64,000 nucleotides of DNA, taken from the IMG/VR virus record IMGVR_UViG_3300028048_000047, positions 96,001 to 160,000 of that record, one strand, 5' to 3'. A program made the position numbers and the translations under genes. Shown in pieces: positions 61,414-64,000 of this stretch (position 1 is the stretch's first letter; each line of letters starts with the position of its first letter). The notes below the pieces were generated by a model. It was not told where the DNA came from, did not search any database, and saw nothing but the letters and a program-made list of their open reading frames with translations. This DNA comes from a virus. Lineage: Duplodnaviria; Caudoviricetes.

Positions 61414-61477
61414 GTATGAGTTTTATATATTATTATATGTTTTTTTTAAATAATTTTGATTTGAGGTGTATTTTTTT

Positions 61478-62188
61478 ATGAGTGATGAGATTAATGATTT
61501 TAAGTTGAGGAAGTTGGATTTGGATGATGTTGATGGTAATGTTAATGTTTTTAATAAGGCTCAATGGTATCGTTTGATGAAGTGGAAGGATAAGGTTGAG
61601 GAGAGTTCTGGTAATCGTAATGTTGATTATGCTTTGGATTTGGTTAATTCTTTTTCTGTTAAGTTGGGTTTGGATGGTGTTGTTAGGCGTAGGATTTATT
61701 CTGTTTATAGTGGTAGTGTTGATGCTGGTGTGTTGACTGGTAGGAGTATTGAGGGTGTTGTTGGTGCTTCTGTGTATGTTGGTCTTCGTTTGGAGGGTGT
61801 TGTTCGTACTGCTGAGGAGGTTTCTGAGGTTTGTAAGGTTTCTTATAAGGATTTGCTTCGTACTTCTAAGTTGATTTGTAAGAAGTTGGGTGTTCGTTTG
61901 CCTTTGTTATCTCCGAAGGATTTTGTTCCTCGTTTTTGTGATAGTTTGGGTATTGTTGATGATGATGTTGTTTTGAAGGCTTATGAGTTGTTGGATGATT
62001 GTGAGGTTGTGGGGTTGTGTAATGGTCCTGCTCCTAATAGTTTGGCGGCTTCTTGTTTGTATTTGGCTTGTCTTGGTTGTGGTGTTCGTAAGACTCAGCG
62101 TGATGTTGGGGAGGTTTGTGGTGTTAGTGAGGTTACTATTAGGAATAATCTTCGTAAGATTCGTAAGACTTTGGAGTTAGATTATTAG
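61478..62188 (+). CDS. tfb: transcription initiation factor TFB/TFIIB homolog lacking the N-terminal Zn ribbon and B-reader
   Basis: KAQWYRLMKW, GRSIEGVVGASVY, SPKDFVPRF, KTQRDVGEVCGVSEVTIRN (two cyclin folds + HTH); SD GAGGTG. Confidence 0.92.
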   Translation: MSDEINDFKLRKLDLDDVDGNVNVFNKAQWYRLMKWKDKVEESSGNRNVDYALDLVNSFSVKLGLDGVVRRRIYSVYSGSVDAGVLTGRSIEGVVGASVYVGLRLEGVVRTAEEVSEVCKVSYKDLLRTSKLICKKLGVRLPLLSPKDFVPRFCDSLGIVDDDVVLKAYELLDDCEVVGLCNGPAPNSLAASCLYLACLGCGVRKTQRDVGEVCGVSEVTIRNNLRKIRKTLELDY

Positions 62189-62259
62189 GAGGGTTGTTTT
62201 TTTAAACTTTTCTATTTTTTTTTATGATTATTATTCTTTTTTTTGTGGGGGATTATAGT

Positions 62260-62919
62260 ATGAAGATGGTTTTTTTTGATACTGAAACTACTGGTTTGGA
62301 TAGTGTTGAGGATAGGATTATTGAGTTGGCTTTTGTGGTTGTTGAGGATGGTGTGGTTGTTAGGAAGTATGATGAGTTTGTTGATGTTGGTGTTTCTTTG
62401 TCTGATGATGTTGTGGATTTGACGGGGATTACTGATGAGTTGTTGTCTGCTGAGGGTGTTAGTGAGAAGTCTGTTGCTGATGATTTGATGGGTTGTTTGG
62501 ATAAGGGTGTTGTTATGATTGCTCATAATTGTCAGTTTGATTTGAATTTTATTTTTCAGTTGTTGGTTAGGTATTATTCTGAGGATGTTGTTCTTGATTT
62601 GTTTGGGGATATGTTTTGGTTGGATACTTTGACTGTGTTTAAGGATAGGAAGGGTTATCCTCATAAGTTGGAGGATATGGTTAGGTATTATGGTATTGAG
62701 TGGGGTAGTTTTCATCGTGCTATTGATGATACTTTGGTTTTGTGTGAGTGTGTTAAGGCTTTGAATCGTGAGAGGAATGATTTGGTGGCTTATTTTAATG
62801 TGTTTGGTTTTAATCCGAAGTGGGGTGTTAGTGGTATTGAGTTTGATTTTATTCGGTATGTACCTCAGTCTTTTAGTAAGAGTATGGTTGGGAAGGATTT
62901 TATTTTGCCTTTGTTATGA
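62260..62919 (+). CDS. DEDDh 3'-5' exonuclease (DnaQ-like)
   Basis: FDTETTGL, AHNCQFD, HRAIDD. Confidence 0.9.
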   Translation: MKMVFFDTETTGLDSVEDRIIELAFVVVEDGVVVRKYDEFVDVGVSLSDDVVDLTGITDELLSAEGVSEKSVADDLMGCLDKGVVMIAHNCQFDLNFIFQLLVRYYSEDVVLDLFGDMFWLDTLTVFKDRKGYPHKLEDMVRYYGIEWGSFHRAIDDTLVLCECVKALNRERNDLVAYFNVFGFNPKWGVSGIEFDFIRYVPQSFSKSMVGKDFILPLL

Positions 62920-62952
62920 ATGTTTTTTATTTATTTTTATATATTGGGGGGG

Positions 62953-63002
62953 GGGTTAATTGTCGACTTTTTGTCGACGGTTGACTCATTATTTTTTTTT
63001 TT
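62953..63002 (+). terminator. 15-bp hairpin (4 G-U pairs) + T-tract
   Basis: GGGTTAATTGTCGAC-TTTTT-GTCGACGGTTGACTC followed by T11. Confidence 0.6.
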
Positions 63003-63268
63003 GATAGGTTGGTAGAGTGGTTTAATGTGGGAGGGGGTTTGTAAAACTCTTTTTCATGAGGTTGATTTTTCCATTTGTCTTTAATTTTTATGTGTTTGTT
63101 TAGTTTTTTTGGTTTTTGTTTGAACGGTTTTTTTGTTTTTGTTGGGGTTTTGTTTTTTGTGGTTGAACATTTTTATAGTGTTGTTTGTTTTTTGTTGAAC
63201 GGTTGTGTTTTACTGTTAGTGTTTTTTTTTAGTTTATTTTTTATTGTGGTGTATGTGGGATAGATATG

Positions 63269-63276
63269 TTTATATA
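63269..63276 (+). promoter_or_regulatory. TATA box for the 63332 peptide gene
   Basis: TTTATATAGTATG, same context as 61406. Confidence 0.55.
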
Positions 63277-63331
63277 GTATGGTGTTTATATATATTATAC
63301 ATCAACCAATGAAAAAGGAGGTAAATAATAC

Positions 63332-63433
63332 ATGAAAATTTTAGGATATACACAATGGCATAAATTAATATTGGATGTGTGGTTTGTGATTAGTTGTTTT
63401 ATAATTATAATATTTGCATTATTTTTAAAATAG
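63332..63433 (+). CDS. 33-aa hydrophobic peptide (not in ORF track)
   Basis: SD AAGGAGGT; MKILGYTQWHKLILDVWFVISCFIIIIFALFLK. Confidence 0.6.
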   Translation: MKILGYTQWHKLILDVWFVISCFIIIIFALFLK

Positions 63434-63464
63434 TTAACTTTATATACTATGAAGTATAATATAG

Positions 63465-63589
63465 TATTGTTCATATAAATATCCTACTATTTTTTTACAA
63501 TATGAACAATATGGTGAGGTTGTGTCAGATACACTCCCACCCAAAATGGGTTATCTCCTTAGTGGTGTTTGGAGAACAGGAGTGTATCT
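63465..63589 (+). ncRNA. candidate structured small RNA, copy 1
   Basis: TATA 63439-63446; 12-bp 5' hairpin; three-way junction closed by AGATACACTCC/GGAGTGTATCT. Confidence 0.6.
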
Positions 63590-63645
63590 CTACTTGTTTT
63601 AAAAACAATAGTAAAAATTATATACTATGAAAATCTATATAAATA

Positions 63646-63785
63646 ATTGTTCATATTATATCACATACTACTTTTCGTTCATAATATGAACATCAAAAAA
63701 AAATAATGGTGGTTAAAAAAAAGAGTAAACTCCCACCCAAAATGGGTTATCTTCTTAGTGGTGTTTGGAGAACAGGAGTCTACTC
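63646..63785 (+). ncRNA. candidate structured small RNA, copy 2
   Basis: TATA 63617-63624; 12-bp 5' hairpin; 51-nt core identical to copy 1 except 1 nt; compensatory closing stem. Confidence 0.6.
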
Positions 63786-64000
63786 ACTTATTCTCAAAAT
63801 AAAACAACACAAAACCATAACAACACAAGACAATACTAAAAATAATAACACCACCAATCAATAATATTGACTCATCATCAAAAACCAATAAAAAAATCTA
63901 TGAACATATACATATTCATTAAAAATATATGTGACCCAAATATATTACAAACATAGTAAAACATTTAAATACTATAAACTACATAAAACATAAACATACA

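Follow-up and report, generated by a model that had tools for sequence, protein, structure and literature searches.

Tandem structured RNA units of a tailed virus, probably captured from an RNA gene of its predicted Methanobrevibacter host

Phage PhiTE reportedly carries a mimic of the antitoxin RNA of its host, the pseudo-ToxI whose description is attributed to Blower et al. in 2012. ToxI itself, a 36-nt tandem repeat, precedes the gene of the toxin that processes it. A second group of viral RNAs, the RNA anti-CRISPRs (Racr), is said to have been described by Camara-Wilpert et al. in 2023. CsrB/RsmZ-type RNAs titrate a translational regulator by means of Shine-Dalgarno-like purine motifs in their loops and linkers; we know of no CsrA homologue in archaea. 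Large phages and haloarchaeal tailed viruses carry tRNA genes. A list of haloarchaeal tailed viruses is available (PMC8651126) and, among methanogens, the Methanosarcina sRNA154, sRNA162 and sRNA41 are intergenic small RNAs that act antisense (PMC3432209).

The locus studied here is part of a 64,000-nt stretch of viral DNA (the window), which corresponds to bases 96001-160000 of a 195,936-bp IMG/VR virus record. An initial annotation of this DNA had described two units of about 180 bp at 63431-63790, each made up of a promoter, a 5' hairpin and a three-way-junction core, and all of these elements were recovered at those positions. The likeness of the units to phage RNA mimics and Shine-Dalgarno sponges is one of logic only, as the defining features of those systems are absent. 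The proposed logic is similar to that of pseudo-ToxI, in that a virus carries more than one copy of an apparently host-derived non-coding RNA and controls them itself. Nevertheless, and contrary to ToxI, the host gene is in this case a single 125-nt RNA without any recognisable toxin neighbour, and the host is an archaeon. The units also share with Racrs that they are short, structured and promoter-driven viral RNAs that would copy an RNA element of the host, but Racrs copy CRISPR repeats, whereas the family described here copies a stand-alone host RNA gene located outside of arrays. The Shine-Dalgarno-like purine motifs, one in a hairpin loop and the other in a single-stranded linker, recall the CsrB/RsmZ RNAs; yet, the latter contain many repeats of the motif and only two UGGUG motifs are present per RNA here, a sponge role being suggested by analogy. 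As in the tRNA-carrying viruses, a large virus harbours host-type RNA genes under viral promoters, but this RNA is not a tRNA and the 196-kb virus has no tRNA genes at all (ARAGORN; 0 in the window and 0 in the entire virus). Finally, the Methanosarcina small RNAs are likewise stand-alone archaeal genes that have a TATA promoter and end in oligo-T, but they have no sequence or Rfam relationship to the units and no antisense target was found for the latter.

The window has approximately 25% G+C, a GC skew near +0.4 and ORFs that are nearly all encoded on the + strand. Terminase, portal and capsid-type proteins are encoded, which identifies a tailed virus. Among the described phages, the terminase is closest to that of a Methanobacteriales virus (54% identity), and the exonuclease encoded at 62224-62919 has hundreds of homologues (49-58% identity) in Methanobrevibacter MAGs from rumen and gut. 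On sequence grounds, the source is an archaeal tailed virus with rumen Methanobrevibacter as its host, so promoters and transcription signals have to be read by archaeal rules. Methanobrevibacter is the main source of ruminant methane and, to our knowledge, its small RNAs and viruses are almost unstudied. The INPHARED phages contain no near-identical DNA, and IMG/VR scans with exact patterns and protein patterns provided no matches. A first scan of JGI metagenomes was empty and a second one gave 15 matches, all of which are chance matches according to the viral covariance model R1 (see below). Translation with alternative codes (TGA=W, TAG=Q, TAA=Q) did not make the ORFs of the window meaningfully longer.

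Several other features of this virus deserve mention. The 195,936-bp record and its relative, scaffold_85 of ERZ1024255 (222,444 bp), are Methanobrevibacter viruses without tRNA genes, and both exceed the size range of 3-188 kb that is given in the abstract of a 2026 paper on an archaeal virus genome database (PMC13465236). These Methanobrevibacter viruses may be among the largest archaeal viruses assembled. The window encodes at 61466-62188 a TFB with two TFIIB cyclin repeats (Pfam E = 2e-33), the N-terminus of which is short and cysteine-free and hence lacks a zinc ribbon. The neighbouring exonuclease is of the DEDDh 3'-5' type and is a host-derived gene recoded in the G+T-rich style of the island. 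This TFB-exonuclease gene pair is present in all of the related viral contigs fetched (up to 222 kb).

Both units have a promoter on the + strand. That of unit 1 (63429-63446) consists of the upstream element AAATAGTTAAC and the TATA box TTTATATA (63439-63446), which we take to be a methanogen-type TATA box; that of unit 2 (63607-63624) consists of AACAATAGTAAAAA and the TATA box (A)TTATATA (63617-63624) and belongs to the repeat family D10. They fit a virus-wide consensus, TTAAATAGAAAC(A/C)TTTATATACTATGA, which is also found at 63958-63975, and the promoter word TTTATATACTAT has 23 occurrences in the virus, all of them on the + strand and none on the - strand (0.07 expected). The promoters proposed in the initial annotation are therefore present where it had placed them, but their type is archaeal (a TATA box with an upstream element) and not that of a bacterial -35/-10 pair. 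The viral TFB may recognise this virus-specific consensus. In the 164-196 kb block of the genome, outside the window, the consensus is followed by a conserved ATTAATAATTGTGAGTGGGAA. According to the distance from the TATA box (22 nt; range of ~22-25 nt), transcription is predicted to start at ~63469 in unit 1 and at ~63647-63649 in unit 2, in both cases on the 5' arm of the hairpin and within ~3 nt of the previously expected 63466 and 63646.

Unit 1 opens with the 5' hairpin HP1 (63467-63509, + strand), whose arms are UUGUUCAUAU and AUAUGAACAA and whose loop contains UACUA and U7. It is followed by a single-stranded linker (63510-63526) that contains AUGGUGAGGUU, with a Shine-Dalgarno-like GGUG, and aligns with the host-invariant AAUGGUGAUGGUU. 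The core (63527-63589) is made up of the closing stem P1 (63527-37 with 63579-89, 11 of 11 pairs), the hairpin P2 (63539-51) and the stem P3 (63554-58 with 63571-75), which carries the 12-nt loop L3 (63559-70), UUAGUGGUGUUU. Unit 2, on the same strand, has a 12-bp 5' hairpin (63648-63692) with UACUACUUUU in its loop, an A-rich linker (63693-63722) containing AAUGGUGGUU, and a core (63723-63785) with P1 (63723-33 with 63775-85, 10 of 11 pairs and one A.C), P2 (63735-47), P3 (63750-54 with 63767-71, including one U.G) and a loop L3 (63755-66) identical in sequence to that of unit 1. The units share a 57-nt direct repeat that is 95% identical (family D2). The three pairs of P1 that had been described as swapped but kept between the units are indeed kept; nevertheless, P1 of unit 2 additionally has one broken pair. 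The 16-mer AGTGGTGTTTGGAGAA, which corresponds to L3 and the 3' strand of P3 in both units, is found once more at 182692-182707 of the virus genome, apparently inside a coding region, and this extra copy may be due to chance.

Archaeal transcription terminates at oligo-T runs, and the UUGUUUU run at 63594-63601 (+ strand) is, by its sequence, the probable termination site of unit 1; UUUGUUUUU is found at the corresponding end of the host gene. The core of unit 2 has no T-run downstream, which leaves it without a predicted 3' end. The similar promoter at 63958-63975 had been regarded as a sign that the series of units continues, a suggestion that has to be abandoned: in the whole virus, the model R1 matches the two units and nothing else, meaning that the third promoter starts no further unit, and the RNA downstream of it has no significant fold (z = -1.0).

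The ViennaRNA fold of the units is exactly the three-way junction which had been drawn from the sequence, and none of 200 shuffles of the unit 1 core folds as well as the original (z = -3.8). The covariance model R1, built from five viral copies, gives scores of 83.1 bits to unit 1 and 80.1 bits to unit 2. In the MAFFT-based alignment of the five copies, 98% of the cells pair and 12 of the 22 pairs are compensatory, with at most 55% of paired cells in slid controls. When 15 viral and host sequences are considered, 97% of the cells pair and 18 of the 22 pairs are compensatory (slid controls ≤57%; 0 of 500 shuffles reach the observed values); this second alignment was fitted to the model and its pair counts are somewhat inflated, but the MAFFT-based five-copy count agrees with it. 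Covariation affects P1, P2, P3 and also the 5' hairpin. The latter is kept in all the viral and host copies compared, with a spacing between its arms that varies from 16 to 27 nt; its compensatory changes turn A-U into G-C and U-A into G-C and include the replacement of CAU/AUG by CGU/ACG in one host group and of UUGUUC/GAACAA by GGUUC/GAACC in the host genome G051, and one G.U pair is found in the viral contig L025. P2 is variable among copies (3- to 7-nt loops, 5- or 6-bp stems). The loop L3 is invariant, being identical in all good viral copies and in the main host lineage. The 15-sequence alignment contains 20 G.U cells and 8 unpaired cells. Since G.U cells would be mismatched on the - strand, an RNA of the + strand is favored, and the promoters and T-runs are likewise located on the + strand. 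The existence of homologues in related viruses and host genomes, with covariation in all helices, bears out the original idea of promoter-driven structured RNA genes with compensatory pairs, and the status of the units as real structured RNA genes is well supported. In most copies, the HP1 loop (UACUA) could form a kissing interaction with L3 (UAGUG), but in a second host group L3 is unchanged although the HP1 loop is different.

The relatives of the virus were reached through the homologues of the exonuclease and are contigs from ENA and Logan, up to 222 kb long, with the same TFB-exonuclease pair. Units of the same layout adjoin this pair in L023/L045, L024, L025/L026/L027, L046 and L048, where some lie after the exonuclease and others in the space that separates a 67-aa gene from the TFB gene. 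A diverged second type, which was outside the training of R1, was detected at 12399-12473 of L025 and 4071-4145 of L046 with 39-40 bits. The viral copies have viral-type promoter sequence upstream of the TATA box, and in its 5' half the L025 copy shows about 3 differences from the host RNA over 57 positions. No unit was found within the 10 kb fetched from L020-22 and L047, which have the same gene pair. A degenerate third type follows the exonuclease in L023 (6888-6966) and L045 (2608-2686), with R1 scores of 21-22 bits; these copies have a perfect 11-bp P1 related to that of L024, and their P2 and P3 loop are not recognisable.

With R1, three Methanobrevibacter genomes gave one locus each (35-39 bits). 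At the host locus L130 (1420-1570), a TATA box is followed 22 nt downstream by a hairpin of the viral type, the linker AAUGGUGAUGGUU, an 11-bp stem, a 7-nt internal loop, a 5-bp stem with the same 12-nt loop and a T-run. The host RNA lacks P2 and has the 7-nt internal loop at the position where P2 is found in the viral units. The AUGGUGAUGGUU linker is common to host and viral RNAs, and the spacing between TATA box and hairpin in the viral units matches that of the host gene. A covariance model based on the host sequences (R2) matches 89 of the 103 genomes of the host GTDB genus and, in a sample drawn from the whole order, 32 of 151 genomes, nearly always as a single gene, most of the extra matches being truncated copies at contig ends. 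This model also recovers the viral units (23-67 bits), with scores of 66.5 and 23 for the two units of the window. The host neighbourhood is largely conserved and is composed of a panE-like gene, the RNA and then the gene of an acidic protein, for which the best result is a sub-threshold SseB-like match. These conserved neighbouring genes, together with the genus-wide presence of the RNA, indicate a chromosomal core gene and not a provirus. The otherwise invariant host RNA gene has the 3' strand of P1 replaced by unrelated sequence at two loci of host MAGs, L200 and L203, which correspond either to disrupted copies or to joins made in assembly. The genome G001 has two further exact L3 words, both of them within coding sequence.

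Both units, the host gene and all the copies compared have a TATA box some 22 nt before a 10-12-bp hairpin with a U-rich loop; both units also have a single-stranded AUGGUG(A/G) linker, a long closing stem and a 5-8-bp stem capped with UU(A/G)GUGGUG(U/C)UU. By their sequence and layout, the host RNA and its viral copies are one undescribed RNA family, and the direction of gene transfer is most simply from host to virus. In Rfam 15, the models of which include hammerhead, twister, pistol, HDV-like, phi29 pRNA and riboswitches, there was no match at the gathering threshold and, at E up to 10, only noise far below it. The literature that was searched contains no description of this RNA, and reading the sequences revealed no K-turn, H/ACA or bulge-helix-bulge patterns. 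Two known classes were considered and rejected. The first one is that of the archaeal C/D box sRNAs: the linker GUGAUGG fits 6 of the 7 positions of the C box RUGAUGA, and no CUGA is found in the 3' part of the units or the host RNA. The second one is that of the type III (ToxI-like) antitoxins: each host locus has one copy and the downstream proteins are acidic.

We consider it likely that the units are separate RNA genes of ~130 nt captured from the host family, which were put under viral promotion, extended by P2 and duplicated, and which act on the partner of the host RNA. In that case, the virus lineage would have captured the host gene and then set it under viral promoters; the additional hairpin P2 would have grown from the internal loop of the host RNA, resulting in a three-way junction, and the gene would have been duplicated. 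Each unit would be transcribed from its own viral TATA-type promoter, with a start at the 5' arm of the hairpin. The features that remain constant between host and virus are the two UGGUG-type single-stranded motifs, set on stable helices, and the U-rich hairpin loop. The two unchanging motifs, one in the loop and the other in the linker, would occupy or supply the partner of the host RNA during infection, so that the viral RNA could be either a decoy or a replacement for a host RNA which falls as the virus takes over transcription. Such imitation or replacement, the probable role of the viral RNAs during infection, would coincide with the redirection of transcription by the virus, whose own TFB is encoded close by.

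Concerning the partner, the GGUGAU of the linker is complementary to the AUCACC in the 3' tail of the host 16S rRNA (a perfect 6-nt match), which makes the small ribosomal subunit one candidate. An RNA-binding protein is an alternative candidate. Complements of L3 or the linker in the virus were limited to scattered 8-10-mers, and in the host genomes the complements of L3 and the linker were not enriched over the reversed control. A more detailed version of the capture scenario may be put forward tentatively: the RNA would be a genus-wide host regulatory RNA that a jumbo archaeal virus captured, remodelled by the addition of P2 and duplicated, and the copies, expressed as decoys or surrogates, would use the unchanging loop GUGGUG and the Shine-Dalgarno-like AUGGUGAU linker to capture the ribosomal tail or a protein and thereby steer translation or defuse a host response to the takeover of transcription.

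The RNA family, present in ~86% of the sampled genomes of the genus, is new in the sense that no Rfam model or paper searched describes it, and the capture of such an RNA by an archaeal virus appears to be undescribed as well. Under the capture scenario, large viruses of the host genus took up, altered and duplicated an RNA of this family. Since viruses tend to copy host RNAs that are important in infection, the viral copies point to a host RNA worth studying. They can also be regarded as a natural mutagenesis series, in which the stems vary freely around a constant loop and linker and P2 may be present or not. The units thus offer a concrete and testable case in an archaeal virus of the RNA mimicry that has so far been known mainly from bacteriophages. 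If the decoy or surrogate role is true, no host-derived regulatory RNA mimic would have been described in an archaeal virus before, and the main rumen methanogens would turn out to have a previously unknown core RNA.

Several other scenarios may be considered. One possibility is that the units are cis-acting leaders or attenuators that control read-through into downstream genes, instead of free-standing RNAs. In most hosts the RNA is found directly upstream of the acidic protein gene and on its strand, with the shape of a stem plus a T-run; the viral contigs L023, L024, L045 and L048 have a unit upstream of the TFB gene, and the lack of a T-run after unit 2 would also agree with such a function. 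Nevertheless, a gene on the opposite strand separates the RNA from the acidic protein gene in one host group, and in the window, L025 and L046 a unit is located after the exonuclease, with non-coding DNA or another promoter-bearing unit on its downstream side. Moreover, the downstream genes are different in hosts and viruses, and the virus has no homologue of the acidic protein. A leader function consequently seems unlikely.

The units could also be small-protein genes in which the pairing would be incidental, a reading that the initial annotation had kept as an alternative on account of the LPPKMGYLLSGVWRTGVY translation. The frame AGU-GGU-GUU is open from an ATG or GTG near the linker in unit 1, unit 2, L023 and L048, and the translations of these four copies are alike (GY.LSGVW..GV(Y/F)). 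However, five of the nine viral copies (L024 and the copies L025A, L046A, L025B and L046B) have no ATG or GTG in the shared frame between the upstream stop and the loop, and the differences in the length of P2 shift the frame relative to the linker from one viral copy to another. What the viral copies conserve is thus the pairing and not the reading frame. In addition, the 12-nt loop has no synonymous variation of any kind and the stems change in compensating pairs. In the hosts the picture is different, and this part of the peptide alternative holds: all 33 distinct host sequences keep the Shine-Dalgarno-like motif GGUGAU with a start codon 5-9 nt downstream and a frame of 11-12 codons. The corresponding mini-ORF, M(I)SIR(L/Y)(Y/H)SFSGV, ends at a UAG made by the last base of L3 and P3, and one host lineage has offset the loss of the AUG by an in-frame AUG 3 nt upstream. 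Yet, some compensating partners fall outside this host frame, and the divergent host G205 has UUG instead of AUG and a weakened Shine-Dalgarno motif. The middle residues of the mini-ORF vary freely. As read from these sequences, the host gene may encode a micropeptide, either additionally or instead; actual translation of the mini-ORF is a minority expectation. This question leaves the RNA reading of the viral units unaffected, and for them a small-protein gene is very improbable.

Two further readings were considered. A DNA-level element (replication origin, packaging site or operator palindromes) at a switch of strand composition could be evoked by the location of the units between G+T-rich and A+C-rich non-coding stretches, by the conserved sequence of the hairpin arms and by a related palindrome at position 163340 of the genome. 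Yet, in a cruciform or on the opposite strand the 20 G.U cells would turn into A.C mismatches, the arms of the hairpin are separated by a variable 16-27 nt, and the homologue in the hosts is one gene, equipped with a TATA box and a T-run, whose chromosomal surroundings are conserved. A role of this kind is highly improbable. No better prospects can be granted to a CRISPR-repeat mimic (RNA anti-CRISPR), solitary repeat, tRNA-like RNA or self-cleaving ribozyme: viral promoter-driven short structured RNAs are the usual form of RNA anti-CRISPRs, the loop AGUGGU resembles a tRNA D-loop and the core has the shape of a three-way junction, but what comes closest in the hosts is a stand-alone gene, mostly in single copy, and not a repeat-spacer array. 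The exclusion of a tRNA, a CRISPR repeat and a hammerhead by the initial annotation stands in each case: ARAGORN finds no tRNA at the locus, which has two inner hairpins only and a P2 loop of variable length (3-7 nt); the hammerhead core is absent and the ribozyme models of Rfam have no match; and the host counterpart, located between protein genes and provided with a TATA box and a T-run of its own, is not a CRISPR repeat, as judged by the layout of the locus.

The units are flanked on their 5' side (62920-63290) by a G+T-rich spacer with almost no C and with GTTGAACGG repeats, and on their 3' side (63790-63960) by an A+C-rich spacer; no long inverted repeats join these two flanks. At 63269-63334 (1339-1404 of L001), there is a sub-threshold Rfam match to the caiA RNA (39.5 bits, 55.5 being needed), which covers the promoter, leader and Shine-Dalgarno region of a gene for a 33-aa membrane peptide (63332-63433) and is probably an effect of composition and of the Shine-Dalgarno motif.
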